The notes beneath the pieces were generated by a model. The model was not told the DNA's origin. It searched no databases and saw only the letters and a program-made list of their open reading frames with translations. The position numbers and the translations under genes were made by a program. A DNA stretch of 64,000 nt from an uncultured bacterium (lineage in GTDB: Bacteria; Lernaellota; Lernaellaia; Lernaellales; Lernaellaceae), in NCBI GenBank assembly GCA_964511015.1, contig CAZEDX010000014.1, positions 10,979-74,978 on the forward strand, in the 5' to 3' direction. Of this stretch, positions 1,215-51,669 are shown piece by piece; positions within the stretch are counted from its first letter, which is position 1; each line of letters begins with the position of its first letter.

Positions 1215-3239
1215 TTAGCAGCCGCACCCGCTGTCGGGTTTGGAACCTGTCATATCGTCGCTCGAACCGGTGCCGGGCAATCCGTCGTCGTCACTGTCAT
1301 CGTCGCCGATAAGATCATCATCGTCGTCGTCACCGTCATCATCGTCGGCATCATCGTCGTTGTCGTCATCGTTGTCGTCATCGCTATCATCATCACTGTC
1401 GTCATCGGCGTCGTCGTCCACATCGTCGTCCGCGTCATCGTCGCTGTCGTCGTCGGTCGAATCATCGTCCGGCAAAACGCACGAATCCGTGTTTTCGTTG
1501 CATTCTTCCCAGTCGTCACAGGGATTGCCGGTGGAGGCGCACTCGTCGGCGCCTTCATTACAGTATTCCACGCCGTTGCAAAATTCGCCGTCTTGTTCAC
1601 AACGGGGGCTGGCTTCGTCGTACTCGCTCACGCATATGTCGGCATCTTCGTCACACGATTCCTCGCCGTTGCACCACTGGCCGTCATCGGGGCAACGGGG
1701 ATTCGTCATCGGGTCATTGACGCTGTAACACTCGTCATTGTTTTCATCGCATTGCTCGATGCCGTTGCACCATAAGCCGTCATCCACGCACCGGATTCCG
1801 GCGTGAACGAGACACTCACCGAGATAGCAACTGTCGTCGCCGTTGCACCAGATTCCGTCGTCGCAGGGCAGGGTGTTGTTCTGGTAGCTGCAGAAACTGA
1901 CGTTGCACCATTGGTTGGTGCAACCGTTGTTGTCTTCGCATTGCTCGTCGTAGAAGCAGGCGTCGAGGAAGCGGCCTTTGACGAAGGTAACCGCGCCGCC
2001 CGCCTGTACCGATTCCCAAGCCACAAACATCTTGCCCTTCGGGCTCATGCTCACGGTCGAATGCCGTTGGTCGTCATAGACGTAGAAATTGATGATGTAC
2101 TCGTTCGTGAGGGTGGTTCCGTCGGCGAAAAACGGCCGGCCGTAGATCGCGGGCTGCTCGCCGTCGGTGGTTCCCTCCATGCGCCAGGTGACGACAAAAT
2201 CGCCGCTTTCGTCGCAGGCCACTGATTCCACCGCGACATCGGCGTAAGTAAACGTGTTGACCGCCAACTTGTTGCCTATTGCCGCGCCGGCCGCGGTGAA
2301 GCGCTGGGCGAAGGCCCGTGTGGTTTCGCCAGTCGCCGACTCATCCCACGCGACGACGAACGTGCCGTTTTCGGCCATTGCCACATGTGGATGGGCGGGT
2401 GTGCCGCCGCCGGTCGGGTTAATGCGGAACTCGCTTCCTTGCGCCACGCCGTCACCATCGTACAAACGGCCGAAGATGTTGCCGTCCTGCCCCAAGGACT
2501 GCCACACAACCACGGTGTCGCCGGTGGAGTTCATGGCGATTGCCGGGTCAATCTGATCGCCGGTCGTGGTGCTGTTGACGCGGAACTCGTCGCCCAGCAT
2601 CTCGCCGGACGCACTAAAACGCTGGCCGTAAATGCCCAAGCCGCTGCCGTCCTGGCCGGCAGACACCCAAATCACCAAATACGCGCCATTGTCGGCCATC
2701 TCAATCGCGGGAGCGGTCTGATCGGAACTGCTGTAGGTGTTGACCACATTGTCGGCCCCAAGCTGGCCGCCGGTGGCCGTGAAGCGCCGCATATAAATGT
2801 CGGAATCGCCGGTCTGGTTGGAGGCCCAAACCGCCGTGAATTTTCCATCTTCGTCCAACGCCACCGCCGGCGTTACCTGATCGCCGGCGGTATTCGAGTT
2901 GACGGCGAAGTCGCCGCCGACCGGTGAGCCGCCGACGCCGAATATCCGCGCGTAGACCTCCCAATCGCCTACGTTACCGGTGCCAGCAGACCAGACGACA
3001 ACCGACCGGCCGCCGGAACTGGTGGCGACCATCGGGTCGACATGCCGGCCGGTGGATGACGTGTTGATGCCCATCTCTGCGTTCTTGACTGAAGTCGCCG
3101 TAAGATCGACCGGGTTGTCGTTCGCCCCGGAGAGGGAATCAGAGATGATGCCCTCTTCGTCCGACTCGATTTCGCCGCAACCAGCGGCCAAATACGCCAC
3201 AACCAACACCAACATCATCAAGATTCTCTGCATCGGCAT
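1215..3239 (-). CDS. Secreted lipoprotein: 7-repeat beta-propeller-like domain + Myxococcus-type cysteine-rich repeats + poly-Asp linker + terminal GCGC
   Basis: Start assigned to MPMQRILMMLVLVVAYLAAGC (lipobox LAAGC; GGGAGG RBS). The ORF-track start at 3296 is probably too far upstream. About seven repeats of the form xVVxWxSxGxxG...IYGQRF. Then repeated CxDGxWCNGxExC units. Tail ...DDDSDDDGLPGTGSSDDMTGSKPDSGCGC then stop. Confidence 0.8.
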   Translation of the reverse strand: MPMQRILMMLVLVVAYLAAGCGEIESDEEGIISDSLSGANDNPVDLTATSVKNAEMGINTSSTGRHVDPMVATSSGGRSVVVWSAGTGNVGDWEVYARIFGVGGSPVGGDFAVNSNTAGDQVTPAVALDEDGKFTAVWASNQTGDSDIYMRRFTATGGQLGADNVVNTYSSSDQTAPAIEMADNGAYLVIWVSAGQDGSGLGIYGQRFSASGEMLGDEFRVNSTTTGDQIDPAIAMNSTGDTVVVWQSLGQDGNIFGRLYDGDGVAQGSEFRINPTGGGTPAHPHVAMAENGTFVVAWDESATGETTRAFAQRFTAAGAAIGNKLAVNTFTYADVAVESVACDESGDFVVTWRMEGTTDGEQPAIYGRPFFADGTTLTNEYIINFYVYDDQRHSTVSMSPKGKMFVAWESVQAGGAVTFVKGRFLDACFYDEQCEDNNGCTNQWCNVSFCSYQNNTLPCDDGIWCNGDDSCYLGECLVHAGIRCVDDGLWCNGIEQCDENNDECYSVNDPMTNPRCPDDGQWCNGEESCDEDADICVSEYDEASPRCEQDGEFCNGVEYCNEGADECASTGNPCDDWEECNENTDSCVLPDDDSTDDDSDDDADDDVDDDADDDSDDDSDDDNDDDNDDDADDDDGDDDDDDLIGDDDSDDDGLPGTGSSDDMTGSKPDSGCGC

Positions 3240-3422
3240 TGTCGAAGCCTCCCGTTTCCTCGCGTTTGAGAGGGGCCGCTTTCCCCGGTTCGGCAATCAC
3301 GTTTGTATAGCAGTTCCCCAACCACAAAAATTTTTGTTCGCCTCCAAGCTATCTAACATCTTTTTGCCCGTCAACCAACGAAAGCAGCGCCGGCGGCCGG
3401 TGTTGGCGGGGGTAAATAATAC

Positions 3423-5434: not shown

Positions 5435-7714
5435 TCAGCAGCCGCAGCCACTGTCATCGTCATCGTCGCCGCCGCCACCGTCCGCGGTGTCGTCATCATC
5501 ATCATCGTCGCTGTCGTCGTCGGTTACGTCGTCGTCGGTGATATCGTCGTCGGTGATATCGTCGTCGGTGACATCGTCATCGGCGTCGTCGTCGCTGTCG
5601 TCGTCGACGTTTTCCACGCATTCGTCATTGGTTTCGTCGCAAGTCTCGTCGGCATCGCACGGATCGCCCGAGCTGACGCATTGGTCGTTGGTTTCGTCGC
5701 ACGACTCGGTGCCGTTGCAGTACTCGCCGTCATCGCCGCAGGGATCGCCGGGCGAGGTGCACGCGCCGGCCGAGCAGATTTCCTCGCCGTCGCAATAGGT
5801 GCCGTTAGAGGTGCAGGCGATGCCGTCATGGTCGGACCAGCCGTCGGTGGCGACGGTAGTGTCGCACCACTGGCATTCGTTGTCGGGATTGACCGTGCCG
5901 TCGGGGTGGCACGTGTAGTCGATGTAGCATCCGTCGCAGGTCGGGAAGGTCGCTTCGGCGAAATATGCCGGGATCGGGGCAAAGATGTACGGCCATTGCC
6001 TTCCGTCGCCGATGTTTGTGTCGTGTGTGTAGAAGACGAAGCCTACCGCATCGCCCGGATTGGCCGAGAACTGTCCGCCGGCCATATCCATACGTACTTC
6101 GAATTGCACATGCGCCTCAGCGGTCGTGCCGAAAGCCCCCACGATGTCTTCCCCGGCGACAGGCGCGCAGAAAATACCCGCGCCGTAAATCGCCGTGAAC
6201 ATATAGGTCGGCCCGCCGGCTCCATAAATGAACGAAAGATAACCTTCATTGCCGCAAGAAGTCGGCCACGCTTCGTCGTTGTTGCTGTCGAAGTAGATGT
6301 CGATACGGTCGCCACTGCTCAGCGCGACATCGCCGAGGTCGTCAACGGCCAGGTACAGGTAGTCGCCGTTGGCCATCAGGTGCAGATCGTATTCGAGGTC
6401 GCCGATGACCGGAATCTCCAAGGCATCGTCCCACTCGCCGGCGTCCAGGTCGCCGTCAATGGTCGGCGGTTCCTCGGCCCATGGAATGGACACTTGCGGT
6501 CTCTCGAATTCCGGCAGATTTGCCCGTGCATACGTGCCCGGCCTCATCCACATGGCCTCTTCCGGCCACTGCGCCCAACCAAAGGTCGTCCAGTCGGTGT
6601 AGCCGGTGCGCAGACCGATGGAGTCTCCCAGGCCCACGTTCATCTCGGTGGAATTCGAGGCCACCCGGAACTCGAATACCACGTTGCCGTCGCCTTGGAA
6701 TGTGGTGGCCGAATAGACGTGTTCCGCCGGCACCGTGGAGCAGACGGAGTATTCTTGCCACGGCCGGAACATCGCCACGTTGCCGGCGGCGTGGTAGTCA
6801 AGCCAGTAGTTCCCTTCGTCACTGCAGTCAGCCGGCCAGCCGCCATTGTAGTCATTGTCGAAGTACACCATGACTTCGTCCGTATCCGTCAGCGTGGTGT
6901 CATTGGTCACGAACGCGCCATAGAGGAAGCCGGCGTCGGCGAGATAATAGGCCGTATAATCCACCCCGCCAGCCATGCTGGCGGCTTCGACCACCACCGC
7001 ATCGTTCCATTCTTCGTCCTCGAACACACCGTCGATCCGCGGCGGGATGTGAACATACGGGATGTCGATTTCCTCCGGCTCGGTGGCGAAGAACAGGTCG
7101 GCATACAGGGTCGGATCGCCGATCGACGCGTCGGTCGGGTAGAGCAGATACCCCGCGGCGTTGTCGAAATAATACATAGCGAAGCCGATGTCGGCCCCTT
7201 GATCGAGATTCATCGGGTCGACCGTAAAGTCGATCTTCGTTTCATACACCATATGACCGCTGGCGAAGGAGGCCGCGGTGGCCACGATCGCGGCCGGTCC
7301 GGTCACCGCTGTGCACGTGCCTTCGGTCGAGAATGGACGGAAATACGTGTTGTTGTTGCCGGCAACCGTGAACCGACCCTCGTTGCTGGTGACACAGGTC
7401 GACGGCCAAGTGTTGTCGTTGTTGGTGTCGAAATAGAACATCGCCTGGTCGTTCTGCCCGCTGTTGGTGGTATCTCCGGTAACGTCCCATGCCAAATACA
7501 AATATTGGCCGTCGGATTTCATGTAGAAGTAGGTCACCGGCGGCCCGGTCAAGTCGATGCGGTAGGCGCCGGCCCATTCGTCCCAGTCGATGGTTCCGTC
7601 GATGATCGGCGTGATCCGTTGCCAGTAGGTATAGTTGGTGTCCACCGCCCCCGCAGTCGCGACAACCAGCAATAGCACCGCCAGCCCCAAGGCTACTGTC
7701 ACCAGCTTTTTCAT
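5435..7714 (-). CDS. Secreted protein: three CBM9-like domains + Myxococcus-type Cys-rich repeats + poly-Asp linker + terminal GCGC
   Basis: Signal peptide MKKLVTVALGLAVLLLVVATAGA. Three repeats beginning IDGxxDxxEWxxA (CBM9-like). Then a CxxDGxxxxCxWC cluster. Tail ...DDDDDDDTADGGGGDDDDDSGCGC then stop. Confidence 0.75.
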   Translation of the reverse strand: MKKLVTVALGLAVLLLVVATAGAVDTNYTYWQRITPIIDGTIDWDEWAGAYRIDLTGPPVTYFYMKSDGQYLYLAWDVTGDTTNSGQNDQAMFYFDTNNDNTWPSTCVTSNEGRFTVAGNNNTYFRPFSTEGTCTAVTGPAAIVATAASFASGHMVYETKIDFTVDPMNLDQGADIGFAMYYFDNAAGYLLYPTDASIGDPTLYADLFFATEPEEIDIPYVHIPPRIDGVFEDEEWNDAVVVEAASMAGGVDYTAYYLADAGFLYGAFVTNDTTLTDTDEVMVYFDNDYNGGWPADCSDEGNYWLDYHAAGNVAMFRPWQEYSVCSTVPAEHVYSATTFQGDGNVVFEFRVASNSTEMNVGLGDSIGLRTGYTDWTTFGWAQWPEEAMWMRPGTYARANLPEFERPQVSIPWAEEPPTIDGDLDAGEWDDALEIPVIGDLEYDLHLMANGDYLYLAVDDLGDVALSSGDRIDIYFDSNNDEAWPTSCGNEGYLSFIYGAGGPTYMFTAIYGAGIFCAPVAGEDIVGAFGTTAEAHVQFEVRMDMAGGQFSANPGDAVGFVFYTHDTNIGDGRQWPYIFAPIPAYFAEATFPTCDGCYIDYTCHPDGTVNPDNECQWCDTTVATDGWSDHDGIACTSNGTYCDGEEICSAGACTSPGDPCGDDGEYCNGTESCDETNDQCVSSGDPCDADETCDETNDECVENVDDDSDDDADDDVTDDDITDDDITDDDVTDDDSDDDDDDDTADGGGGDDDDDSGCGC

Positions 7715-7917: not shown

Positions 7918-10137
7918 TTAGCAGCCACAGCCGCCATCGTCGTCGTCATCGTCAACGTCGCCCGCGTCGTCATCGCTGCCGGCATCGTCGTCGCCAGCGT
8001 CATCGTCGCCGGCGGCGCAATCCGGATCTTCTTCGTCGAGCAGGTCGTCGCAGTTGTTGTCGATGCCGTCGTCGCAGATCTCGGTCGCTTCGGGGTTCAC
8101 GCTATCGTCGTTGTCGCGGCAGTCGTCACCGCCACAAGCCGTGTCGTCGAAGCCGTCGCCGTCGAGGTCGCAGCTCTCCAGGCCCGTGAACACCAAGCTC
8201 ATCGCCTGCGGACCCTGCGGCACGTCGGTCGCCTGCACCACGATTTCGTAGACCTCTTCTCCCGGTGATTCGATGTACACCTGTTCGACCGGATTGACGT
8301 GGTCCTCGCCCCTGGTCGCAGCCACGTTGGGTTGGTTCGGCTTAAGTACCCAGGGCAGGAACGTTTCGCCACCGCCGACCAGGGAAAGGTCGAGGTCGTT
8401 GACCAGTTCACGCTGAGCGAGAATCGGGCCCGGCGGGTCGGTCCATACCAGCGTGACCTTCACCGCGCCTGTGCCGCGGCGGAACTTCTGCCGCCAGGTT
8501 TCGCCTTGGTCGAGGGTGAGTTGCAGGTAGCTCTGGTTGAGGATCAAATCGAGCGAGTTCGGAATCTGCAGCAGACCGTAGCCGAAGGTGTAGTCCGGAC
8601 CAGGGCGGCCCAGATCCTTCACGCCGTGGATCATCAGCGCCTTCATGAGCGACGGCGGCGGATCGTCGCCGCCGACCACGTTCGCCCACTCCTCCAGCGC
8701 CAGCGCGGTCGCGCCGGTCACCACCGGGCAGGCCTGGCTGGTGCCGCTCATGTTCATGTAGCGCGGCTGGCCCATGTTCGACACGCAACTCTTGGTGCCG
8801 GTGTCGGCCATGCCGCCGCCGGTCTGGTGGCCGGGCGCGGCAACGTCGGGCTTCAAGCGGCCGTCGTCCGTCGGGCCACGGCTGGAAAAGTAGGCGATCT
8901 CGTTCGTCGTCACATCCGTCGCGCCGACGGTGATCGTGTTCTTCGCCGGCACCGGTGGCGGGATCAGGTGGAAGTCGCCCGCGCAGCCGCTGGTGCGCTC
9001 GTTGCCGGCGGCCCAGACGATGATCATCTCGCGGCCGAACTTGCCGCCGATGATCTCATCGATCAACGCCGCCGAGCCTTCGTAATCGCCCAGCCAATCG
9101 CAATCGTAGTTGTTCGGACCGATGTTTGCGCCGATGGAGTTGTTGGCCGTCTGGGCGCCGAGATCCTGAATCGCGTGTCCGTAGCTGGCCGCCATGTCGC
9201 CCGGGTTGTTGTAGAAGAGAATGAACCCGCTGGGCGTGAAGTCCATGGTGATGATGGAAGCCTGCGGGGCCATGCCGGCGTAGGTGCCGCCGGACAGCGA
9301 GCCGTCGCCGGCGACGGTGCACGAAACATGGTTGGCATGGCCGATCATGTCGGGCACGCCGGTCTGGCCGACCACCAGGCGGTCGCCCAGATCGGGGTGC
9401 TTGGCGTTGCCGGTGGTGCCCGGCACGATGCCGCCGTCGTAGACCAGCACCTTCACGCCGTTGCCGTTGACGCTGTACGGCGCCTGGTGCGCGATACCCG
9501 CGCCGACCACCGGCCGTACCGCGTTGTTGTAGAGGCCCCACGGCGGCGAAGGCTGCGTGACCCACATCACCGCGTCGGCCTGCGCCAGCACGTAGGCGTC
9601 TTCCGGCGAGTTGGCCCGCACGAAGGCCGCACCGACCTCAGGCAGGTACTGCAGCAACTCGCCGTCGGCCATTTCGATCGCGGCTTCGATGTCGTCGGCG
9701 CTCACGTCGTCAAAAAAGCGCACGTACAGATCGACACGGCCGTCGCCCACCAGCGCATAATCCTCGATCTTGCCCGCCTGCAGGCGCGGATGGATCTTGT
9801 CTTCCGGCGCCAGTTCCGCCACGTAGCGCAACGGCGAGGGCGATTTCATCGCCGCCCACTGCCGCGGCTGCACATAGGCGAGATAGGCGTGCTCCGGAAT
9901 CGGCACGAGCAACTCGAGCCCGGTGGCGGCCAGCGCCTCGCGCTCGGCCGCGTTGGGCGTGGCTTGGAACTGCACCAACACATGGCGGCCGTTGAACGGC
10001 GCCAGTTTGGCCCAGGCCAACGTCGTGGCGGGCGGCGTGATGGTGCGGCTGCGCAACAGAATCGACGGCCCGGTGGCCGCCGTGGCGACAGCGGTAAATG
10101 CCAGCAACAACAACAGGAGAAGGGTCAGACGTTTCAT
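7918..10137 (-). CDS. S8 subtilisin-like serine peptidase with a C-terminal MopE-like metal-binding motif, poly-Asp linker and terminal GCGC
   Basis: Start at MKRLTLLLLLLLAFTAVATAA (GAGGAG RBS). The ORF-track 987-aa ORF over-extends upstream. Catalytic triad blocks VLVYDGGI (Asp), HANHVSCTVAG (His), GTSQACPVVTGA (Ser). C-terminal CGGDDCRDNDDSVNPEATEICDDGIDNNCD. Ends DDDDDDGGCGC then TAA. Confidence 0.85.
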   Translation of the reverse strand: MKRLTLLLLLLLAFTAVATAATGPSILLRSRTITPPATTLAWAKLAPFNGRHVLVQFQATPNAAEREALAATGLELLVPIPEHAYLAYVQPRQWAAMKSPSPLRYVAELAPEDKIHPRLQAGKIEDYALVGDGRVDLYVRFFDDVSADDIEAAIEMADGELLQYLPEVGAAFVRANSPEDAYVLAQADAVMWVTQPSPPWGLYNNAVRPVVGAGIAHQAPYSVNGNGVKVLVYDGGIVPGTTGNAKHPDLGDRLVVGQTGVPDMIGHANHVSCTVAGDGSLSGGTYAGMAPQASIITMDFTPSGFILFYNNPGDMAASYGHAIQDLGAQTANNSIGANIGPNNYDCDWLGDYEGSAALIDEIIGGKFGREMIIVWAAGNERTSGCAGDFHLIPPPVPAKNTITVGATDVTTNEIAYFSSRGPTDDGRLKPDVAAPGHQTGGGMADTGTKSCVSNMGQPRYMNMSGTSQACPVVTGATALALEEWANVVGGDDPPPSLMKALMIHGVKDLGRPGPDYTFGYGLLQIPNSLDLILNQSYLQLTLDQGETWRQKFRRGTGAVKVTLVWTDPPGPILAQRELVNDLDLSLVGGGETFLPWVLKPNQPNVAATRGEDHVNPVEQVYIESPGEEVYEIVVQATDVPQGPQAMSLVFTGLESCDLDGDGFDDTACGGDDCRDNDDSVNPEATEICDDGIDNNCDDLLDEEDPDCAAGDDDAGDDDAGSDDDAGDVDDDDDDGGCGC

Positions 10138-10311
10138 CGGGATCTCCTCGTCAAACGGCCTGCGGTTCGGCATTCTAAAGGCGGCTTTTGCGGCTGGCAA
10201 ACCACCCCCGTCCGGTGGCCAGCCGCCGCAAAATCCGTTAATGTCACCCCAACGCGAACCGGCCCGGCCGGGTTCGCGCCGACGAATCAGTGAACATCCC
10301 GGGAGAATGGC

Positions 10312-11571
10312 GTGACCCAAGTAGCTCCGGCCGCCGCGCCGAAACGCGACGGCGATCTGGATTGGTTCCGCGGCGTCGGCTGCATTTTGATGTTTCTGTG
10401 CCACGTCGCGGTGATGATCGGCATGCCCACCAACTCGTGGGCCTACATCTACCATTTCGACGGCATCTATCAGCTCTATGCGTGGTTCTTCATCGCCTCG
10501 GGCATGAACGCCGCGCGCGCCGCCTGGAACGACAACGCGCGGCCGCACCCGGGCCGCACCACCGCCAACTACTTGCTGGGCAACCTCGTGCTGTTCGTGT
10601 TGGGCGTGATCTACAGCGTGAACCGCCGCACCTGGGGCCATATGGAACTCTTCTGCGGCGTCGCCGCCTGCTCGGCGGTAGCCTACCTGATCCAGCGCCG
10701 CCGTTGGCCGCATTGGGCTTCCATCATCATCGCCGTGCTGCTGATCGGCACGGTCGTGGACTACAACTACCTGTACTGGAACTACCCCCACCCCGAGATG
10801 TTCAAGCTGCGCGAATTCAACGCGCTGGTGCTCCAGATCATCAATTCCTTCAACCTGGGCGAGCGTTTCCTCTTTGTGCACTTCTCGCTGCTGCCCTGGG
10901 TTTCGTGGTTCATTCTCGGGGCGCCGATGCTGGCCTGGACCGGCACCAAACGCGAATGGATCATGTGGACGCTGTTCATCGGACTGTTCGCCGCGTCATT
11001 CCTTGTGCCGCACTACATGAACAAGATGTCGCTCGACTTCTACCTGCGGGCGAAGGTCGACTTCATGCTGCGGTCGACCGCGCTGGGCGGCGTGACCATT
11101 CTGGTCGTGCGCCGCTATTACAAGGGCACCTGGGCGATCAACAAGAAAATCGAGTTCCTCGGCCGCGAATCGTTGATGGCCTTTGTGCTGCAATGGTTCT
11201 TCGCCGACTGGTGCATGCTCCTGCGCGGCATGGGTCAAGCGACCGGCCGCCCGTTGTGGATGATCTTCCCGCTGATGCAGGTGTTCACCATCTTCGGCAC
11301 CTACTGGCTGACCAAGTTCTTCGCCGGTTGGCGTGACCGCACCATCCGCCACCCGCACTACCTGCGCAACTGGCTGACGGTGACGCTCGTGTTTTTCGCG
11401 CTGTCGCTGCTGACCTACAACCGCGCGGTGGCGATTTCCTACCTGGTTTCGTTCCCGGTCATTGTCGGCGTGGCGATGGTCTTCCCGGCGCTCCGCCTGG
11501 CCGTGCGGCAAAAGGTCATGCCGCGCAAGCCCGTGGCGCCGCCGGCCGCGCCGCCCGCCGTGACGGTTTAG
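10312..11571 (+). CDS. Polytopic membrane protein, DUF1624 / heparan-alpha-glucosaminide N-acetyltransferase-like
   Basis: GTG start with GGGAGA RBS. N-terminal DLDWFRGVGCILMFLCH block resembles the HGSNAT/DUF1624 signature. About 10 TM helices. Confidence 0.55.
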   Translation: MTQVAPAAAPKRDGDLDWFRGVGCILMFLCHVAVMIGMPTNSWAYIYHFDGIYQLYAWFFIASGMNAARAAWNDNARPHPGRTTANYLLGNLVLFVLGVIYSVNRRTWGHMELFCGVAACSAVAYLIQRRRWPHWASIIIAVLLIGTVVDYNYLYWNYPHPEMFKLREFNALVLQIINSFNLGERFLFVHFSLLPWVSWFILGAPMLAWTGTKREWIMWTLFIGLFAASFLVPHYMNKMSLDFYLRAKVDFMLRSTALGGVTILVVRRYYKGTWAINKKIEFLGRESLMAFVLQWFFADWCMLLRGMGQATGRPLWMIFPLMQVFTIFGTYWLTKFFAGWRDRTIRHPHYLRNWLTVTLVFFALSLLTYNRAVAISYLVSFPVIVGVAMVFPALRLAVRQKVMPRKPVAPPAAPPAVTV

Positions 11572-11573
11572 CC

Positions 11574-12347
11574 ATGCCCGGCCGGTCGGAAGTCACGCGC
11601 GCCATCGTGTTGCGACGCTACGACTTCCGCGAATCCGACCGCATCGTCGTGCTGCTCACCCCTGAGCTCGGCCTGGTGCGCACGCTGGCCAAGGGATTGC
11701 GCAAATCGCACAAGCGTTTCGGCGGCGTGGTCGACCTGCTCAACTGTCTGGAAGTCGAACTGACCCGCCGCAAGGGCGAGCTGATGCTGCTGACTGGCGC
11801 GCGATTGTTGGAGGCCTTCTCGCCGCTCAGCGCCTCGCCGATCTTGCTCGCCGCCGGCTGCCATCTGGCGGAAGTCGCCTCGTCGTTCGCGGCGGAAGAT
11901 GCGCCCGAGCCCGAGATTTTCGCCCTGCTGGCCGCGGCGTTGCGGCGGCTGGAGGAGGGGGCCGATCCGGCCCCGGTCAGCCGGGCGCTGGAGTTGCGGG
12001 TGTTGGCCGCCGCGGGGTTCGCGCCGCGCCTGACCGCTTGTGCAGTCACCAACCGGCCGCTAGCCGACGACGAAGTGGCCGCCTTCGACCCGCGCCACGG
12101 CGGTACCGTCGTGGCCGCCCGTGCCGACGCCACCGCGCCCCGCCTGTCGGGCGCCACGCGCCGCCGCATGCTGCAGGCGCTCAACGCTAGTCCCGACGAG
12201 TTGTGGACCGTGCCTTGGACGCGCGACGAACTGCTCGAGGCCCGCGCCGCCTTACAGGCCATGCTGCAGAGCCACCTGGGCCGTCAACTGCGCGCCCGCG
12301 CCTTCGCCGAGGAAGCGGCCCGGTACGCGCGGGAAAAGAAGTGTTAG
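11574..12347 (+). CDS. recO: DNA repair protein RecO
   Basis: N-terminal OB fold AIVLRRYDFRESDRIVVLLTPELGLVRTLAKGLRKSHKRFGG. 257 aa. Start lies 3 nt after the stop of the upstream gene. Confidence 0.85.
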   Translation: MPGRSEVTRAIVLRRYDFRESDRIVVLLTPELGLVRTLAKGLRKSHKRFGGVVDLLNCLEVELTRRKGELMLLTGARLLEAFSPLSASPILLAAGCHLAEVASSFAAEDAPEPEIFALLAAALRRLEEGADPAPVSRALELRVLAAAGFAPRLTACAVTNRPLADDEVAAFDPRHGGTVVAARADATAPRLSGATRRRMLQALNASPDELWTVPWTRDELLEARAALQAMLQSHLGRQLRARAFAEEAARYAREKKC

Positions 12348-12440
12348 AGCTTGGTGAGGAGAAAAAAGGCTTGCTCGATGGTCTGACCGAAAGGTAAAAT
12401 AAACACTTGAGTTCGTGAGTCGGCACCAGACGGAGGAAGC

Positions 12441-13010
12441 ATGAAAACGATGACCAAGAGCCCGATTCTGTTGTTCTTCCTGCTGCTCGCGCTCGCCTTT
12501 GGGTTGCAGGGGATATTCGCCTGCGACGACGACGATGATGACGACGACACCAGCGCCGATGATGACAACGATGATGACAATGATGATGACGATGACGACG
12601 ATGTCGCCGACGATGACAGCGACGACGACGGCACCGACGATGACGTGTCTGACGACGATGTCACCGACGACGATGTGACCGACGACGACGTCACCGACGA
12701 CGACGTCACCGACGACGATGCGGCCGACGACGACGTGGTGGCCGGTCCGGACTACCCGAAAAACCACGCCGCTACGTGGGACTGCTACCTGTGCCACGCC
12801 GCGGAGCTCATGAATTGCTCCACCGCCGAGCCGCACGGCCATGCGCACTCCGCGCCGGCCGATTGTGTCGCCTGCCATTCCGCCAGCGGCACGAATTACA
12901 ACGGCTGCACCGGCGAGCACGGCGACGACAATTGCACGCTCTGCCACGGCCGCAACATGCACGGGAAGAAGTTCGCCAACTCCGCCCAGTGCCGGGTGTG
13001 CCACCAGTAG
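12441..13010 (+). CDS. Tetraheme c-type cytochrome lipoprotein with a long poly-Asp tether
   Basis: Lipoprotein signal LLLALAFGLQGIFAC. About 80 aa of D-rich linker, DDDDDDDDTSADDDNDDD...DDDVTDDDVT. Four CxxCH motifs (CYLCH, CVACH, CTLCH, CRVCH) within ~90 aa. GGAGG RBS. Confidence 0.8.
   Translation: MKTMTKSPILLFFLLLALAFGLQGIFACDDDDDDDDTSADDDNDDDNDDDDDDDVADDDSDDDGTDDDVSDDDVTDDDVTDDDVTDDDVTDDDAADDDVVAGPDYPKNHAATWDCYLCHAAELMNCSTAEPHGHAHSAPADCVACHSASGTNYNGCTGEHGDDNCTLCHGRNMHGKKFANSAQCRVCHQ
12651..12737 (+). repeat. 15-bp tandem codon repeat (GACGACGAYGTSACC)x6 encoding (DDDVT)n
   Basis: Direct reading shows six consecutive 15-nt units with only wobble differences. Confidence 0.9.
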
Positions 13011-13275: not shown

Positions 13276-15222
13276 TCAGCCGTTACATCCGCCGCCGCCG
13301 TATACGCCGGTGTCGTTGTCGTCGTAGCCGATCAGGTCGTTGCCGTCGTCATCGTCATCGCCGCTGCTGCCGTCGTCATCATCGTCGTCATCGTCATCAC
13401 CACCGGAATCGTCATCGGTATCGTCGTCATCGGCTCCCGCAGTGACCGTCAGTTCCACCTCGTCGGGCGTGGCGGCCCAGGCGCAATCGTAGACGGTCAG
13501 CCGGAAACGGTAGACGCCGATTACGACCGGTTTGACGATCGGGTAGGCCGTGTCGGCTTCCTGAATCTCCAGGTCAACCGGCCCGTCAAGTTGTTCCCAA
13601 TCGTAGATCAGCAGCGCGTTTTCCGGATCGTTGGACCCGCTGCCGTCGAGCATGACCGGCTGGCCGGCGGACGATTCCAGATCGTCTCCCGCATCGGCGA
13701 TCGGCGGCTCGTTGACGTCGGGAGATAGAATCAGATACGCCATGCCAGACTCCACGCGAGCCGGGTCGGTCGCGTCGGCCGCGCGGGCGCCCAGCACCAG
13801 GTCGGCCGTGCCGGTGCCGTCGACATCCGCCGTGGCTACCGCGAAGCCGAGCTGATCTTCCGTCGTCGCGGCCACCACCTTGTGCAACGGTGCGTCCGTC
13901 GCCAGATTGACATGGTGCTCCAACGGGAAGTCATCGCTGCCGGCGATCACGTATACCAGCGCGCGCCCGGCGGTCAGGGTGCGCGGCGCGCCGATCACCA
14001 GATCCGCCGAGCAGTCGGCGTTCATGTCGCCGAAGGCCAGGGCGAAGCCGAAGCGTTCGCCCACCGTGGCGCCGGTGATGGTCACGTCGGCCGTCGCCAG
14101 ACTGACCACGCTCGCCCACTCGGCGCGGCCGTAAACCACGAACACCTGTCCCTGGTTGCCTTTGGCCGGTACGTTTGGGGCGGACAAGGCCAGGTCGGTG
14201 GCGCCGTCGCCGTCGAAATCGCCGCAAGCGACCGCCAGGCCGAGGTTGTCGAGCTGGTCGGCCCATTCGAATTCGATGTCGGGCGGGTCGTTGGCCAGGT
14301 CGAGCGAGAGTTCGTCGGACAACCACCGGCCGAAGATCGCGTAGACCGCGCCGTCGTTGCCTTCCTTGCCGCCCGGCAGCGGCAGCGATACGCCGGGCGC
14401 GCCGAGGATCAGATCGTCCTGGCCGTCGACGTTGATGTCGCCCAACGCCAGGCCGAGTCCGAGGCGCTGGCTGGTCGTGGCGCTGCTGATCTCGACGTCG
14501 GCCGTGACCGCGCGCAGGTCGATTTCGGTGACCCAGTCGCCGCCGCGGAAGCCGAACACCTTGCCGGCCGCCGGGTGGCCGACGTCCTCATAGTTGGGGG
14601 CCGCGGCAAACAGGTCGGTCTTGCCGTCGCCGTCGAAGTCGCCCACCGCCACGCGAGCGCCGAACTGGCCGTCGGCCTTGGCGCCCCAGATGGTCACGTC
14701 GGCATCGGCAGCCTGCAGCGTACCGGGCCACGTTTCGCCGCCGAAGTAGATCAGCACCACGCCGAGCAGCAGTTCGCCGTCCGGACCGGTCGCGCGCGGC
14801 GCGCCGATGGCCAGGTCGGCGATGCCGTCGTCGTTGAGGTCGCCGATGGCGATGCTCGAACCGAGGTACTGCTCGGCGGCGCCCAGCACCACCACGTCGG
14901 CCGCGTCGGCAGATAGGTCGAGATCGACACCCTGCACGCCTTGCCGCGAGAGCAACAAATACACGGCGCCGCGACGGTAGTTCACCGGCGCCAGGCCCAT
15001 GCCGGGCGCGCCGAAGGCGAGGTCGGGCGAGCCGTCGCCGTCGAGATCGCCGGCGGCCACGGCATAGCCTAGATTGGCGTCGTCTTGCGGGCCGAGCAGG
15101 GTGGACGAAGCCGTGCCTGCCTCGGCCAGATCGAAGGTGTCGGCTACCGCCGGCGTTGCCGCCGCGAGCCACAAAACCGCCCAGGCCAGCGCGAAACACG
15201 ATAGCCGAATCAAGCGCATCAT
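13276..15222 (-). CDS. FG-GAP (integrin-alpha-like) repeat protein; secreted; poly-Asp tail ending GGGGCNG
   Basis: Signal peptide MMRLIRLSCFALAWAVLWLAAATPAVA. Repeated FG-GAP cores (VGDFDGDGKTDL, GDLNDDGIADLAIGAP, CGDFDGDGATDLALSAP...). Tail DDDDTDDDSGGDDDDDDDDDGSSGDDDDDGNDLIGYDDNDTGVYGGGGCNG then stop. Confidence 0.8.
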   Translation of the reverse strand: MMRLIRLSCFALAWAVLWLAAATPAVADTFDLAEAGTASSTLLGPQDDANLGYAVAAGDLDGDGSPDLAFGAPGMGLAPVNYRRGAVYLLLSRQGVQGVDLDLSADAADVVVLGAAEQYLGSSIAIGDLNDDGIADLAIGAPRATGPDGELLLGVVLIYFGGETWPGTLQAADADVTIWGAKADGQFGARVAVGDFDGDGKTDLFAAAPNYEDVGHPAAGKVFGFRGGDWVTEIDLRAVTADVEISSATTSQRLGLGLALGDINVDGQDDLILGAPGVSLPLPGGKEGNDGAVYAIFGRWLSDELSLDLANDPPDIEFEWADQLDNLGLAVACGDFDGDGATDLALSAPNVPAKGNQGQVFVVYGRAEWASVVSLATADVTITGATVGERFGFALAFGDMNADCSADLVIGAPRTLTAGRALVYVIAGSDDFPLEHHVNLATDAPLHKVVAATTEDQLGFAVATADVDGTGTADLVLGARAADATDPARVESGMAYLILSPDVNEPPIADAGDDLESSAGQPVMLDGSGSNDPENALLIYDWEQLDGPVDLEIQEADTAYPIVKPVVIGVYRFRLTVYDCAWAATPDEVELTVTAGADDDDTDDDSGGDDDDDDDDDGSSGDDDDDGNDLIGYDDNDTGVYGGGGCNG

Positions 15223-24322: not shown

Positions 24323-25054
24323 GTGGTTCTCCTGTACAACGACGCGGACACGCTCGGCCTAGATATCTCTGACGCCATTCTGGAAAAGGACCATTCCGGT
24401 TGGTCGATACTCACTAATGACCGTTTCGAGATCCGTCGCAGGGAAACCAGCGGCCATTTTACGTTCGTAGACAAAACGATTTCAGACCTGAAACATTTCC
24501 CAGAGGGCGAAGAGCCGGTGACTGAAGAAGACCTGACAAACAAATCGATCGATTTGTTGCAGTCGCTCGACGTTCCTTCAGACGAAATCCACGACATTTC
24601 GGTGAAGCGGATCATCGATCAAGCAGAGGATGAATTCGGCTTCGATGTCGGAGATCGTTTAACGGCCGCTTTTCTGGTGTATGTCGACCGCGTGATAGCA
24701 AACACACCGGTCGAAGGATCGTACGCCAAACTGTTGTTCACGACCGAAGGGCGCCTGATAAAAGTGAGCACTAGGTGGCGGAACGTGACCGGGCAAGCAA
24801 TTGACATATTGCCGATCATTGAAGAAGAACTACTTCGCAATACCGCATTGGCTGTTTCTGCCAAAAGCCTTCTTCATGGTAAGGTTGACGTGTTCTATGG
24901 TGGGTATGCCTATGTCGAGGAATTTGGTGAAGACGCGGTCGAACAAAAAACCTTTGACCTGCATTTCGTTTTTCGTTACGCGACGGCTGATTCGCCATTG
25001 ATGTCTGGCGTATTGAATGCGGTGATGGAATCCGCGCTTGCGGGAGGAGTCTGA
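24323..25054 (+). CDS. Hypothetical protein (island)
   Basis: 243-aa acidic ORF, with start/stop overlap with the next gene (ATGA at 25051-25054). Confidence 0.5.
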   Translation: MVLLYNDADTLGLDISDAILEKDHSGWSILTNDRFEIRRRETSGHFTFVDKTISDLKHFPEGEEPVTEEDLTNKSIDLLQSLDVPSDEIHDISVKRIIDQAEDEFGFDVGDRLTAAFLVYVDRVIANTPVEGSYAKLLFTTEGRLIKVSTRWRNVTGQAIDILPIIEEELLRNTALAVSAKSLLHGKVDVFYGGYAYVEEFGEDAVEQKTFDLHFVFRYATADSPLMSGVLNAVMESALAGGV

Positions 25055-25539
25055 TGAAAGCCCGGTGCAGCCTCATCCTTCTAGGTCTCGTACTTATGAT
25101 TGGACAAGAAGCCATCGGCAACCCGATCCAACTTGGCGTCATCGAGGACGCGTTCCAGTTCAAACAGAACGTGTGCCTGGTCTTCCAAGGCTATTTTTCC
25201 AGTGGACCCTACCGTTTGGAGCGTACGATGGACAGTCAGACAATACGCATCATGGACGACTGGGAGATACCGGCGGAAGATCCGCTGAAGGAATGCGGGG
25301 ACTACCGTCTCTATATCTTCGAAGACGCATGCGTACCAGCCGGCCAAGCGTTGTACACCCTGTTCCAGAAGATGCCCAGCGGCTGGGACAATGCCGGTTC
25401 CGAAACCATTCAAGTTGAAGACAGCGGTGAGGAATGCGGCAACGACGACGACTGCGCGGCGCTGATCGATCCGGACGAATACCTGCCGTGTAATTTGGAC
25501 GACGACGACAACGACAACGATGACGGGTGCGGGTGTTGA
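25054..25539 (+). CDS. Small secreted protein with poly-Asp/Asn tail ending GCGC (island copy of the tail family)
   Basis: Signal peptide MKARCSLILLGLVLMIGQEAIG. Tail ...CNLDDDDNDNDDGCGC then TGA. Confidence 0.65.
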   Translation: MKARCSLILLGLVLMIGQEAIGNPIQLGVIEDAFQFKQNVCLVFQGYFSSGPYRLERTMDSQTIRIMDDWEIPAEDPLKECGDYRLYIFEDACVPAGQALYTLFQKMPSGWDNAGSETIQVEDSGEECGNDDDCAALIDPDEYLPCNLDDDDNDNDDGCGC

Positions 25540-31227: not shown

Positions 31228-31310
31228 CGATTTCGTCTCGGGTGGCGGACGCGGTGCCGGCGGCGCGCAACCTTCTGACATCAGGTGACAAATTCCTCCG
31301 AAACGGTGTT

Positions 31311-31327
31311 TGGCACGGGTCCTGCTT
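31311..31327 (+). promoter_or_regulatory. sigma54-type promoter TGGCACgggtccTGCtt (GG-N10-GC)
   Basis: Matches TGGCAC-N5-TTGCW with correct spacing. 33 bp upstream of the ATG at 31360. Confidence 0.55.
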
Positions 31328-31359
31328 TTATTCCCCGCACAACACGGAGGAGCGAGAAA

Positions 31360-32145
31360 ATGAGGCAGCGTCGATCGGACCGAAACGGTCAAAAAGGTTT
31401 CACTTTGACTGAACTTCTGGTGGTGATCGCGGTGATCGGCATTCTCGCCGGCATCGCGCTTCCGCGCCTGGTCGGTTATCGCGACGAGGCGGACAAGGTG
31501 TTTGCCCTCGACCAGCTCCGCGATTTGCAGGCGCTGGCGACGGTGTATTACCACGAACACGAGCAGCCGCCGACGATCGAGGAGCTGAGCGCGCAATACA
31601 ACCGCTCGCACAACGACAAGATCATCGGCCGGTGGGCCGTGATGTCGGTCGGCTACGGGCAGAGCTCGGTAAAGTTGGCTGAAGGAGGCGTCAACGGTTA
31701 CCAGCCGGCTTACATCATCTGCAGCACGTACGAGATCCGTAACGTGGCGTATGTGTACGGCCTCGACGACAAACCGCCTGAGGTGGCGAAGGTGGGCTCC
31801 GACCCGATCGGTATCGGCCAGTGCGGACCGAGCACGGGGTCGGCGCCTGCCCAACCGGCGGCCCCGGTACCGACGCCCGAGCCGCCGGCCAACCCCCCGG
31901 CCAGTCCGCCGCCGACCAACAATCCGCCGGAGCAGCCCCCCGGCAATCCGTCTGGCGGCAACCCGCTGTCGAACGAATGCAACGTCGACGAGCAGTGCCC
32001 GTGTGAAAACAATTGGCCGAACCATGGTCAGTACGAGAACTGTGTGGTCCACTTGGCCAACGAATGCTGGAAAGCCGGCAAGATCAGCAAGGAAACCCGC
32101 CAGCAGTGGGTCACCGATGCAGCCCATAGCATTTGCGGGATGTAG
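31360..32145 (+). CDS. Type IV pilin-like / pseudopilin protein with Pro-rich linker and a Cys-rich C-terminal module
   Basis: Prepilin cleavage/methylation motif KG|FTLTELLVVIAVIGILAGIAL. GGAGG RBS. C-terminus CPCENNWPNHGQYENCVVHLANECWKAGKISKETRQQWVTDAAHSICGM. Confidence 0.8.
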   Translation: MRQRRSDRNGQKGFTLTELLVVIAVIGILAGIALPRLVGYRDEADKVFALDQLRDLQALATVYYHEHEQPPTIEELSAQYNRSHNDKIIGRWAVMSVGYGQSSVKLAEGGVNGYQPAYIICSTYEIRNVAYVYGLDDKPPEVAKVGSDPIGIGQCGPSTGSAPAQPAAPVPTPEPPANPPASPPPTNNPPEQPPGNPSGGNPLSNECNVDEQCPCENNWPNHGQYENCVVHLANECWKAGKISKETRQQWVTDAAHSICGM

Positions 32146-32396: not shown

Positions 32397-33173
32397 GTGT
32401 TGTTGAAATGTTGCCAGGGGCAGAAAAGAGCTAGCGGCTTCACATTGGTGGATGTCCTGCTGGCCATCACGGTGGTGGGGATCATCACCGCCGGCGCGCT
32501 GAACCAGGGATTGGTCCAGCGTTTGCGGGCGAGTACCCGGTCTGCTGTGAGCGAATTGAATGCCTTGCGCGATTTGGCCGACCAGCACTATCTCCTCAAC
32601 GGCCGGGCTCCGACGGTCGGCCAGTTGCGCACCATGTACCACAACCGCCACCACAAACCGGTGGTCGGCCGCTGGGTCGTGCTCGATGGCAAATCGCTGC
32701 CGCTGCCCGAAGACGGCATCCGCGGCTACCACCCGGCTTACGTCATCTGCAGCACGTTTCGGATCCCGAACGCCGACTACGTCTACGTGATGGACGGGCA
32801 CCAGCCGGAATTCGCCGGCGTCGGCGACGACCCGCTCGGCGTCGGCCAGTGCGGACCGGCGGCGTGGGCCTATGCCGAGGGCGTCGATCCTTACCAGCCC
32901 GAGCCGGAAGTGCTTCGCCCGTCGGTAACCGTGTACAAGGCGGAGCCGCTGCCGAAGGTCAAACCGCGGCTGCTGGAAGAGCCGAAGGTCGAGGAAGTCG
33001 ACGTATGCGCCCTCGACCGCCGCTGCCCCTGCCAGTCCACCTGGGCCAACCGCGGCGAATACGAAGACTGCGTGAAGGACGTGGCTCGCGAATGCAACGA
33101 ATCGGGCCGCATCGGTCAGGACGTCCGCGAGCAGTGGCTCGCCGAAGCACGCGCCAGCATCTGCGGTCTGTGA
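32397..33173 (+). CDS. Type IV pilin-like protein, paralog of 31360-32145
   Basis: SG|FTLVDVLLAITVVGIITAGAL. Shares GYHPAYVICSTF and the C-terminal CPCQSTWANRGEYEDCV...ECNESGRIGQDVREQWLAEARASICGL module. Start is GTG at 32397 or TTG at 32403, with a GGAGGGG RBS. Confidence 0.75.
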   Translation: MLLKCCQGQKRASGFTLVDVLLAITVVGIITAGALNQGLVQRLRASTRSAVSELNALRDLADQHYLLNGRAPTVGQLRTMYHNRHHKPVVGRWVVLDGKSLPLPEDGIRGYHPAYVICSTFRIPNADYVYVMDGHQPEFAGVGDDPLGVGQCGPAAWAYAEGVDPYQPEPEVLRPSVTVYKAEPLPKVKPRLLEEPKVEEVDVCALDRRCPCQSTWANRGEYEDCVKDVARECNESGRIGQDVREQWLAEARASICGL

Positions 33174-36033: not shown

Positions 36034-36160
36034 CGCCAGGCCTCCACGCCGACAAACCGTTGCCGCGGACGCTATCGCGTCGGCCGGGTCATGTCAACAA
36101 ACGGCGCCGCCGCCGAGCCACCGCGTTGAAATCGGAGCGTCAACATGCCTAACATGCCGC

Positions 36161-51582: not shown

Positions 51583-51669
51583 CGTCGGCCGGCCGGGCCG
51601 CATTTTCCATTTTTTTCGCTTCATTCTATGATAGCCGCCGGTGTTTCCCCGCTCGCAAAGGAGAACCCC

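Follow-up and report, generated by a model that had tools for sequence, protein, structure and literature searches.

In R. capsulatus, cytochrome cy is composed of a 30-residue anchor, a 69-residue linker and a 100-residue cytochrome domain, and the length of its linker matters for function (PMC7876108). PgcA of Geobacter sulfurreducens, described as “hemes on a string”, carries low-complexity repeats that bind metal oxides (PMC10570954). An acidic run close to the lipidated cysteine is known from the lipoprotein export signal (LES) of Bacteroidota, where it drives surface export and has the consensus SDDDD in B. fragilis (PMC5080379). In D. vulgaris, TpIc3 is the hub between the periplasmic formate dehydrogenase FdhAB and Qrc (as cited in PMC9324843). 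Lernaellota MAGs encode a periplasmic FdhAB without a membrane subunit together with QrcABCD, and the main text of the paper describing them makes no mention of a c3-type carrier (PMC9324843). Here we describe a Lernaellota protein that joins a lipoprotein anchor, a poly-Asp spacer and a compact tetraheme domain, and that may relay electrons on its tether beyond the cytoplasmic membrane.

The DNA analysed, referred to as the window, is a stretch of 64,000 nucleotides from an uncultured bacterium of this phylum. An ORF on its plus strand (12441-13010) starts with ATG, encodes 189 residues and is the only one among about 50 predicted window genes to contain CxxCH. All four motifs (CYLCH, CVACH, CTLCH and CRVCH) lie in frame, the GC3 of the ORF (0.84) is similar to that of other window genes, and the motifs are kept in homologous copies of the domain. 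Thus, the motif count given in the original prediction is real, and a frame artefact or shadow ORF was rejected; it is instead the overlapping minus-strand ORF (12252..13004) that is a high-GC shadow ORF. A sigma-70-like promoter was not found upstream of the cytochrome ORF, and terminator-like hairpins near the gene were seen on the minus strand only. Judged from its sequence, the ORF is a real gene for what would be a small membrane-anchored electron carrier with four heme sites (Table 1).

Table 1. Sequence features of the cytochrome gene and its product, with positions in the window.
Feature	Position	Strand	Details or basis
Shine-Dalgarno GGAGG	12432..12436	+	4 nt 5' of ATG
Type II (lipoprotein) signal peptide, residues 1-27	12441..12521	+	K2/K6 in n-region, then hydrophobic core and G-I-F-A lipobox
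Cys28, +1 cysteine predicted to be lipidated	12522..12524	+	invariant in alignment A3
Disordered poly-Asp spacer, residues 29-98	12525..12734	+	70 aa, net charge ~-48, xDDD / VTDDD units
15-bp tandem DNA repeat array	12608..12733	+	8.4 copies, 81% matches; encodes VTDDD units
Tetraheme c-type cytochrome domain, residues 99-189 (predicted)	12735..13007	+	alignment A1, AlphaFold; two di-heme repeats (~101-146, 152-189)
Heme motif 1, C115-Y-L-C118-H119	12783..12797	+	family alignment
Heme motif 2, C142-V-A-C145-H146	12864..12878	+	family alignment
Heme motif 3, C165-T-L-C168-H169	12933..12947	+	family alignment
Heme motif 4, C184-R-V-C187-H188	12990..13004	+	family alignment
His109, non-motif, candidate distal heme ligand	12765..12767	+	41/41 domain copies
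His132 (EPH motif), non-motif, candidate distal ligand	12834..12836	+	41/41 domain copies
His160, non-motif, candidate distal ligand	12918..12920	+	nearly invariant, at least 90% in A1
His174 (HGK motif), non-motif, candidate distal ligand	12960..12962	+	41/41 domain copies
Cys126, first of extra Cys pair	12816..12818	+	closest subgroup only
Cys156, second of extra Cys pair	12906..12908	+	closest subgroup only

At the N terminus, MKTMTKSPILLFFLLLALAFGLQGIFA directly before the cysteine satisfies a PROSITE-type lipobox rule ([LIVMFWSTAG]2-[LIVMFYSTAGCQ]-[AGS]-C, with the cysteine at residue 15-35, a positive n-region and a hydrophobic core), and by this rule K2/K6, ILLFFLLLALAF and G-I-F-A-C28 make up a lipoprotein signal, within which residues 9-24 are modelled as a helix by AlphaFold. 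A lipobox cysteine is also present in every N-terminally complete relative, and the assignment as a lipoprotein made in the original prediction is supported. In the full-length AlphaFold model, residues 29-100 have no secondary structure (pLDDT ~50-55); the C-terminal domain modelled alone reaches a pLDDT of 87.3 and a pTM of 0.76. The same prediction had described a four-CxxCH domain of ~95 residues as the only folded part, hanging on a poly-Asp leash of ~80 residues that ranked among the longest acidic linkers in the window. Its outline stands, and the spacer is the longest of the window's N-terminal acidic linkers, but the lengths are corrected to 91 residues for the domain and 70 for the leash.

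The two halves of the domain align with each other at a probability of 97.5% and E 7e-12 (hhalign), and the domain thus consists of an internally duplicated di-heme unit. Across 41 domain copies, the CxxCH cysteines and the first two motif histidines are conserved without exception and the other two motif histidines in 40 copies each, the exceptions being two single His-to-Tyr changes; one Trp is also invariant across the family alignment. The position of His160 varies by one residue, a few relatives have it elsewhere, and P0026-P0028 have no His at this column. The presence of three invariant extra histidines and one nearly invariant one fits four bis-His hemes, and four hemes are predicted to be covalently bound through the four motifs. 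Moreover, Cys126 and Cys156 probably form a disulfide; among the domain copies, only those of the window protein, P0004, P0006 and P0008 have both cysteines.

Relatives of this protein are rare. An exhaustive HMMER search of 1.84 billion cluster representatives returned 21 matches, about 17 of them genuine members; an alignment search of a 5.8-billion-protein collection added seven members, and related loci searched with a closer subset alignment (A2) added more, whereas a word-indexed search with the domain alone had no matches. Single-domain members have an Asp-rich spacer of 26-100 residues with almost no Lys or Arg, and the placing of the D-run with respect to the cysteine varies within the family. 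In addition, some members are fused forms with two to four domains and 8-16 hemes (P0001, P0002, P0003, P0005 and L002), in which the links between domains are short (~5-10 residues) and non-repetitive; the 16-heme member, L002, lies on a FEN-1099 MAG contig. Tandem paralogues are found at two loci (L015 and L019).

When 24 domain copies were compared with Pfam at E-values up to 1, Cytochrome_C7 matched 21 of them (best E 1.9e-7), Cytochrom_c3_2 matched 19 and class III cytochrome C matched 15. The window's own domain has no match to PF14522 or PF02085 even at E up to 1 and lies above no curated Pfam or NCBIfam threshold; its sole curated match is to PF09699, a model with a gathering score of 20.6 bits, of which the full protein reaches 14.8 and the domain by itself 19.1 (E 0.0011); TIGR01905 gives E 3. 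The family profile weakly matches PDB chains of MtrA, the dodecaheme GSU1996 and PpcA-type c7 (E 2.5e-4 to 0.02), whereas a PDB search with the single sequence gave noise only, and the domain model had no Foldseek match in the PDB. The kinship with c3 and c7 cytochromes raised at the outset is therefore supported weakly, at the level of profiles. On these matches, the domain is a rare, uncurated branch at the edge of the c3/c7 multiheme superfamily. Among class III features, it has the CxxCH density (four in 91 residues, where ~20-30 residues per heme are usual) and, at sequence level, the bis-His ligation; the window protein does not reach a curated HMM score above gathering.

Members of the c7/PpcA group (PF14522) are likewise small, helix-poor, bis-His multiheme carriers with ~20-25 residues per heme. 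The region of hemes 2-4 in the family aligns with the PH...CxxCH...H...CxxCH...CxxCH core of c7 in the PDB (E 0.006-0.02), GSU1996 is matched by the family profile at E 9e-4, and, as in Geobacter c7, there are paralogues and head-to-tail polymerised forms. However, PpcA-type c7 has three hemes in ~70 residues and is soluble in the periplasm, whereas the window domain has a fourth, extra heme at its N terminus and consists of two di-heme repeats, and the protein is anchored by a lipobox and carries a poly-Asp spacer. With type I c3 of Desulfovibrio (PF02085 / PF14537) it shares four hemes in ~90-110 residues, all apparently bis-His, but the family profile has no significant match to solved c3 chains (best 1i77, E 9.4) and the domain none by Foldseek, its motifs are laid out as a duplicated H-x5-CxxCH-xn-H-x9-CxxCH unit, and it is lipid-anchored, while type I c3 is soluble. 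The domain also resembles Paired_CXXCH_1 (PF09699 / TIGR01905; a ~41-residue unit with two CxxCH) in being built of two paired-CxxCH units, although the Pfam match covers motifs 2-3 and so is not in phase with the internal repeat.

The layout of lipobox, 70-residue linker without predicted structure and heme domain is that of a tethered shuttle, as in cytochrome cy and the fatty-acid-anchored c553 of heliobacteria, in which a c-type domain is leashed to its anchor by a long unstructured linker; the lengths of linker and domain are 69 and 100 residues in cytochrome cy and 70 and 91 in the window protein. Yet cytochromes cy and c553 are class I monoheme His/Met proteins that work with defined partner complexes, between bc1 and oxidases or reaction centres, and their linkers are not poly-Asp, whereas the window domain is a class III-like tetraheme bis-His module. 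PgcA, also a lipoprotein-processed c-type cytochrome made of heme domains and low-complexity stretches, has three monoheme domains with Pro-Thr repeats between them and is cleaved and released; the window protein, in contrast, has a single N-terminal poly-Asp stretch followed by one compact tetraheme domain. As in the LES, the acidic run directly follows the lipidated cysteine (C-DDDDDDDD in the window protein). Nevertheless, the LES is 4-5 residues long, position-critical (acidic residues at about +3 to +5) and established in Bacteroidota only, whereas the run in the window protein extends over 70 residues and its repeat is found as internal and C-terminal spacers too.

Asp makes up 48 residues (69%) of the spacer, which has no Lys, Arg or Glu. 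The 15-bp array that encodes part of it is likely a slippage substrate altering spacer length; in the strain variant P0150, the spacer has 84 residues instead of 70 (+14), and the heme domain differs at one of 91 residues. xDDD spacers are also found in at least 11 other exported window proteins, among them proteases, FG-GAP proteins and one that is PNGase-F-like, where they stand at the N terminus after the lipobox cysteine, internally or as a C-terminal tail, and they recur in genes adjoining the cytochrome homologue in a FEN-1099 (Lernaellota) genome. By this distribution, the poly-Asp spacer is the generic anchor-to-domain spacer of the lineage and not a device specific to the cytochrome. 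The original prediction had judged such a tethered, anionic carrier suited to electron shuttling across the periplasm or to mineral contact; a reading of the leash as an adaptation of this cytochrome gives way to its occurrence in other exported proteins and to its variable length between strains. A cytochrome-specific mineral-binding role of poly-Asp was rejected on the same distribution, and since the spacer is found genome-wide in exported proteins, it should not count as evidence that this cytochrome binds minerals. A literature search for Asp-rich linkers in bacterial lipoproteins gave no relevant finds. C-terminal D-rich tails ending in G(G)CGC would represent a second form of the spacer system, and an NCBIfam scan matched these D-tail/GCGC ends to no known sorting domain.

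No oxidoreductase, Qrc, Fdh or cytochrome-maturation gene was found within the 64-kb window, so that the check for a nearby oxidoreductase suggested at the outset came out negative over this range. Gene context is not conserved among relatives of the cytochrome, and when all window ORFs were compared with the related loci by tblastn, the cytochrome alone gave a match; an operon with a redox partner was rejected on these grounds. With no partner nearby and no conserved context, a partner can be assigned only by way of a paper about related genomes. The window also contains pseudopilin-like genes. Its GS-III has its best named hit in Ca. Lernaella stagnicola (61%), but Elusimicrobia reach 55-62%, and this comparison is no more than suggestive of membership of FEN-1099.

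We propose that Sec export and lipoprotein processing would lead to lipidation of Cys28 and hold the protein at the membrane surface outside the cytoplasm. As their conservation suggests, His109, His132, His160 and His174 would each supply the second axial ligand of one heme, and such bis-His ligation would give low-spin hemes suited to electron transfer and not to catalysis. The domain may then work as a tethered multiheme relay that takes electrons from one partner and hands them to another, diffusing within the reach of its spacer, which we estimate at ~10 nm on average and ~25 nm when fully extended; in functional terms, it would be a c3/c7-type hub on a cytochrome-cy-type leash. In the periplasm, electrons could pass from soluble dehydrogenases through the domain to a membrane quinone-reductase complex, possibly from FdhAB to Qrc, which is the least secure step. 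We give this reading, a tethered electron relay outside the cytoplasmic membrane with the periplasm slightly favoured over the cell surface, a probability of about 40%. The tandem paralogues and fused multi-domain forms resemble the periplasmic c3/c7 networks of Geobacter and Desulfovibrio. A bolder version, in which a tandem di-heme duplication that lacks a structural counterpart in the PDB is a tetraheme fold not described before and has replaced soluble c3 as the periplasmic hub of FEN-1099/Lernaellota, riding on a lineage-wide anchor and poly-Asp display system whose D-rich G(G)CGC tail would be a new sorting or anchoring signal, seems to us rather unlikely.

The evidence against the periplasm comes from the company that the acidic spacer keeps. 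A cysteine followed by a D-run is also found on extracellular-looking enzymes of the window (PNGase-F-like, FG-GAP/ASPIC and S41) and is missing from an HtrA-like window lipoprotein. More broadly, window proteins with D-spacers are of typical extracellular kinds, namely an S8 subtilase, a C25 gingipain-like peptidase and PNGase-F-like, FG-GAP/PKD and FG-GAP/ASPIC proteins. By analogy, this company and the Bacteroidota rule of an acidic run close to the +1 cysteine (PMC5080379) point to the cell surface and not the periplasm. The lipoprotein might thus be carried across the outer membrane and displayed on its outer face, the Asp run serving as export signal or spacer. The domain, reaching beyond the LPS, might then accept electrons from a conduit in the outer membrane and hand them on to insoluble Fe/Mn oxides, humics or partner cells in the manner of MtrC/OmcA or PgcA, with poly-Asp perhaps binding cations or minerals. 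Known lipoprotein multiheme cytochromes of diderms are mostly outer-membrane or extracellular, the low-complexity linkers of PgcA bind metal oxides (PMC10570954), a syntrophic lifestyle has been raised as a possibility for FEN-1099 (PMC13248872), and the pseudopilin-like genes would also suit such a location. On the other hand, neither the window nor the surroundings of any relative showed a porin-cytochrome or MtrAB-like conduit, the LES rule was tested in Bacteroidota only, and the main text of the published Lernaellota metabolic reconstruction reports no extracellular respiration (PMC9324843). The D-run also varies in position relative to the cysteine within the family, and the periplasm is the typical location of small c3/c7-like modules that have paralogues and polymerised forms. 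In E. coli, Asp at +2 is a signal for inner-membrane retention, a rule that reads the opposite way. Surface display seems to us only slightly less likely than a periplasmic location.

A role without a dedicated partner appears unlikely. The protein would then be a local electron sink or redox buffer, a membrane-anchored “capacitor” or protective reductant for metals or oxidants, and its spacer would be functionally irrelevant. Monocistronic, scattered genes without a conserved neighbour, a spacer length unconstrained between strains, and multi-domain forms that raise the heme capacity to 8-16 would all agree with such a role, but the domain is under strong purifying selection, the basic HGK(T/K)(W/F) patch close to heme 4 is conserved in a way that suggests docking, and the apparently bis-His, hexacoordinate state of all four hemes argues against small-molecule chemistry. 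Very improbable, finally, is that the ORF is non-functional or unexpressed, a low-complexity repeat joined by chance to Cys/His-rich sequence. The lack of a detectable sigma-70-like promoter and the window domain's scores below curated HMM thresholds speak for it; set against them are the three-part architecture common to about 35 proteins, whose genomes span 45-67% GC, the invariance or near-invariance of Cys and His positions, the near-identity of the domain in the strain variant, the strong Shine-Dalgarno and typical GC3, and the confident AlphaFold model of the domain.

If the reading as a tethered electron relay is true, this protein would be a candidate for the electron carrier that is missing from published FEN-1099/Lernaellota reconstructions, which have a periplasmic formate dehydrogenase and Qrc but no named c3. 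The c3/c7 repertoire would in addition gain a very compact tetraheme module, with ~21 residues per heme. The poly-Asp leash, as first read, is now corrected to a genome-wide spacer of exported proteins, and its range of 26-100 residues across the family, together with the 14-residue difference between strains, would amount to a natural linker-length experiment for tethered electron transfer.

The open reading frame at 12441-13010 (+) is real, and its 189-residue product consists of three parts: a signal peptide, a poly-Asp spacer and a heme domain. The signal peptide satisfies the lipobox rule: its n-region is basic, its core is hydrophobic, and the sequence G-I-F-A-C places the Cys at position 28. 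The original prediction of a four-heme cytochrome lipoprotein on a poly-Asp leash was correct in its description, with slightly high lengths for the spacer (~80 residues; here 70) and the domain (~95; here 91). Its CxxCH count is also genuine, and a frame artefact is excluded since the GC3 of the frame is 0.84, as in the adjoining genes, CxxCH occurs only in this gene among the ~50 predicted in the window, and the motifs are kept in homologues. In the AlphaFold model from the full-length alignment, the signal peptide is a helix and residues 29-100 have no secondary structure (pLDDT ~50-55); the isolated domain (pLDDT 87.3, pTM 0.76) is modelled as four short helices, one per CxxCH.

No homologues of the domain were found by word-indexed search. 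When 1.84 billion cluster representatives were scanned exhaustively with HMMER, 21 proteins matched, including 16 with E <=1e-10; the whole domain is common to ~17, and the remaining four, different multiheme proteins with partial matches only, were rejected as members. Further members came from an alignment search of a 5.8-billion-protein collection and from locus searches. Across 41 distinct domain copies, all eight CxxCH Cys, the motif-1 and motif-2 His, one Trp, and the non-motif H109, H132 and H174 are invariant; H160 is nearly invariant, and the motif-3 and motif-4 His are each present in 40/41, with Tyr in one copy each. Four motifs and four extra His are what four bis-His hemes require, which suggests electron transfer rather than catalysis. 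In addition, the N- and C-terminal halves match each other in hhalign (97.5% probability, E 7e-12, a score inflated by the shared Cys/His motifs), so that the domain, judged from its sequence, is a di-heme unit, H-x5-CxxCH-xn-H-x9-CxxCH, duplicated in tandem. A further pair of Cys, C126 (12816-12818) and C156 (12906-12908), is found in the window protein and its homologues P0004, P0006 and P0008 and in no other copy; since copies have both residues or neither, never one, the pair probably forms an added disulfide in the window protein's closest subgroup. Two homologues vary at heme sites: the third site of P0007 reads CTAALCH (CxxxxCH), and P0009 has CxxCY instead of CxxCH at the third site of copy 1 and the fourth of copy 2. 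These changes are either sequencing errors or natural variation in how heme is attached or ligated.

No Pfam or NCBIfam model matches the window protein above its curated threshold, the sole real match being Pfam Paired_CXXCH_1 (19.1 bits; cut-off 20.6). Nevertheless, the suggested kinship with cytochrome c3/c7 families is borne out by weak profile matches: counting E <=1, Cytochrome_C7 is touched by 21 of 24 domain copies (best E 1.9e-7), Cytochrom_c3_2 by 19 and class III cytochrome C by 15. The family profile also weakly matches solved structures of MtrA (2.5e-4), the c7-type polymer GSU1996 (9e-4) and c7 (0.006-0.02), with the c7 core aligned to hemes 2-4. We regard the domain as a putative uncurated four-heme variant on the margin of the c3/c7 superfamily.

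The lipobox Cys is present in every N-terminally complete family member. Single-domain members have spacers of 26-100 residues, 33-77% Asp and almost without basic residues, and in members that fuse 2-4 domains (8-16 hemes) the spacers are shorter (15-49 residues). The related loci range from 45 to 67% GC. At two of them family paralogues lie in tandem, two head to tail in L015 (537-1889) and three in L019 (76-1434); in these arrays a two-domain (8-heme) form lacking a long D-spacer adjoins a single-domain form that has a spacer at its N-terminus and a D-rich tail at its C-terminus.

The leash itself, eye-catching as it is, proved ordinary for the source genome rather than special to the cytochrome. 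In the window, xDDD repeats occur in at least 11 further exported proteins, four other lipoproteins have a D-run directly after the lipid Cys, and two proteins have internal repeats; these repeats appear to be a general-purpose linker of the organism's exported proteins. The habit looks lineage-wide, as xDDD spacers also occur in four lipoprotein-like ORFs just downstream of a 16-heme homologue on a FEN-1099 (Lernaellota) MAG contig, and in a protein adjoining another homologue. Moreover, P0150, a strain variant from the 90% cluster of the window cytochrome, differs at 1/28 signal-peptide and 1/91 domain residues and has a spacer of 84 versus 70 residues (+14), with nine VxDDD units versus five, which indicates rapid repeat expansion and contraction. 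Taken with the repeats in other exported proteins, this length shift argues that the spacer is a fast-evolving generic module and the heme domain the target of selection.

Six or seven exported window proteins, including an S8 subtilase and a C25 gingipain-like peptidase, have a C-terminal xDDD tail ending in G(G)CGC. No transmembrane helix follows the tail in six G(G)CGC proteins, and no NCBIfam sorting-domain model matches such tails; they may represent an undescribed tag at the C-terminus, for anchoring or sorting, that mirrors the N-terminal layout of lipobox and D-spacer. Cys-rich modules just before D-tails (CDDGIDNNC...DPDC and repeated C..G..C.NG.E.C units) presumably resemble small metal-binding or EGF-like cysteine knots. 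Two pseudopilin-like genes, the first with an N-terminal methylation motif (PF07963), possibly encode type II secretion or type IV pilus components, and bear on how D-spacer enzymes exit the cell.

Features of the cytochrome gene and of D-rich or exported proteins in the window and related loci
Feature	Position	Strand	Remark
Shine-Dalgarno GGAGG	12432-12436	+	ATG start four bases after
Signal peptide	residues 1-27	+	MKTMTKSPILLFFLLLALAFGLQGIFA, then Cys28
Poly-Asp spacer	residues 29-98	+	70 residues, 48 Asp, no Lys/Arg/Glu; xDDD / VTDDD units
15-bp tandem DNA repeat	12608-12733	+	encodes spacer
Heme domain	residues 99-189	+	four in-frame CxxCH
Four CxxCH motifs	12783-12797, 12864-12878, 12933-12947, 12990-13004	+	in frame
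S41 peptidase	35915-37609		D-run right after lipid Cys
Lipoprotein	40470-41450		D-run right after lipid Cys
FG-GAP/ASPIC protein	59078-61429	-	D-run right after lipid Cys
PNGase-F-like protein	61526-62773		D-run right after lipid Cys
Internal xDDD inter-domain linker	38213-40249	-	about residues 220-270
Internal xDDD inter-domain linker	59078-61429	-	NTADDDTADDDTADDD...
xDDD tail, extreme C-terminal G(G)CGC	1215-3296	-	lipobox protein
xDDD tail, extreme C-terminal G(G)CGC	5435-7714, 7918-10881, 25054-25539, 38213-40249, 51628-53745	-, -, +, -, +	ordinary signal peptide
FG-GAP/PKD protein	13276-15222	-	similar tail, end GGGGCNG
Cys-rich module preceding D-tail	1215-3296, 5435-7714, 7918-10881, 51628-53745	-, -, -, +	
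Two adjacent pseudopilin-like genes	31285-32145, 32397-33173	+	both end ...SICG(M/L)
Four lipoprotein-like ORFs	L002 10681-16193		JAOSJX010000002.1, FEN-1099 MAG; xDDD spacers after lipobox Cys
Beta-propeller protein	L006 11903-14239		xDDD spacer after lipobox Cys; adjoins another homologue

The same strand carries, upstream of the cytochrome, a membrane-protein gene and then recO (11574-12347, +), which starts 3 bp past the former and ends 93 bp before the cytochrome ATG. Since no sigma-70-like promoter was found between recO and the cytochrome, co-transcription is possible in the window; the cytochrome genes of relatives stand alone. Downstream and convergent are genes for an FG-GAP/PKD and an OmpA-family protein, and the other window genes are housekeeping genes and secreted hydrolases. 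The search for a nearby redox partner came back empty: no oxidoreductase, quinone-interacting complex or cytochrome-maturation gene is found in the 64-kb window, no neighbour is common to window and relatives, and the relatives are mostly stand-alone genes amid unrelated functions. The first named match of the window's GS-III is Ca. Lernaella stagnicola (61%), with Elusimicrobia at 55-62% and the top match at 81%; a heme-domain family member sits on a FEN-1099 MAG that shares the xDDD habit. The window therefore likely comes from a FEN-1099-related organism.

At the sequence level, a lipid anchor leads into a polyanionic, disordered spacer, and this into a domain with four CxxCH that is under purifying selection. 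These parts of the predicted membrane-tethered electron shuttle are seen, and the shuttle role comes by analogy: the cytochrome would act as a leashed shuttle like Rhodobacter capsulatus cytochrome cy, in which a 30-aa anchor and a 100-aa domain are joined by a 69-aa linker whose length matters for function (PMC7876108), almost the geometry of the window protein (70 and 91). Mechanism and partners are thus what we infer, and the compartment is the weak point of the reading. We give a probability of roughly 0.4 to a periplasmic relay, in which the tethered cytochrome would pass electrons outside the cytoplasmic membrane, in the periplasm. One point for the periplasm is the likeness of the c3/c7-like modules, paralogues and polymerised forms to networks in the periplasm of Geobacter and Desulfovibrio. 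Others are the periplasmic FdhAB without membrane subunit and the QrcABCD of Lernaellota MAGs (Williams et al., PMC9324843), and the placement of FEN-1099 next to Desulfobacterota in a 2026 study (PMC13248872); Williams et al. cite the D. vulgaris route, yet their main text names no c3-type carrier (PMC9324843). Against these points, the cytochrome could instead be held at the cell surface, a possibility we rate only slightly below the periplasmic relay: the D-spacer proteins of the window look extracellular, an HtrA-like lipoprotein is without a D-run, the surface-export signal of Bacteroidota is an acidic run that follows the lipid Cys (PMC5080379), and known lipoprotein multiheme cytochromes such as PgcA work outside the cell (PMC10570954).

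In summary, within the c3/c7 superfamily the cytochrome is a rare and uncurated tetraheme module, very compact, lipid-anchored and tethered. It provides a concrete candidate where an electron-transfer step of an uncultivated phylum is unassigned, and its family offers a natural series of tether lengths.
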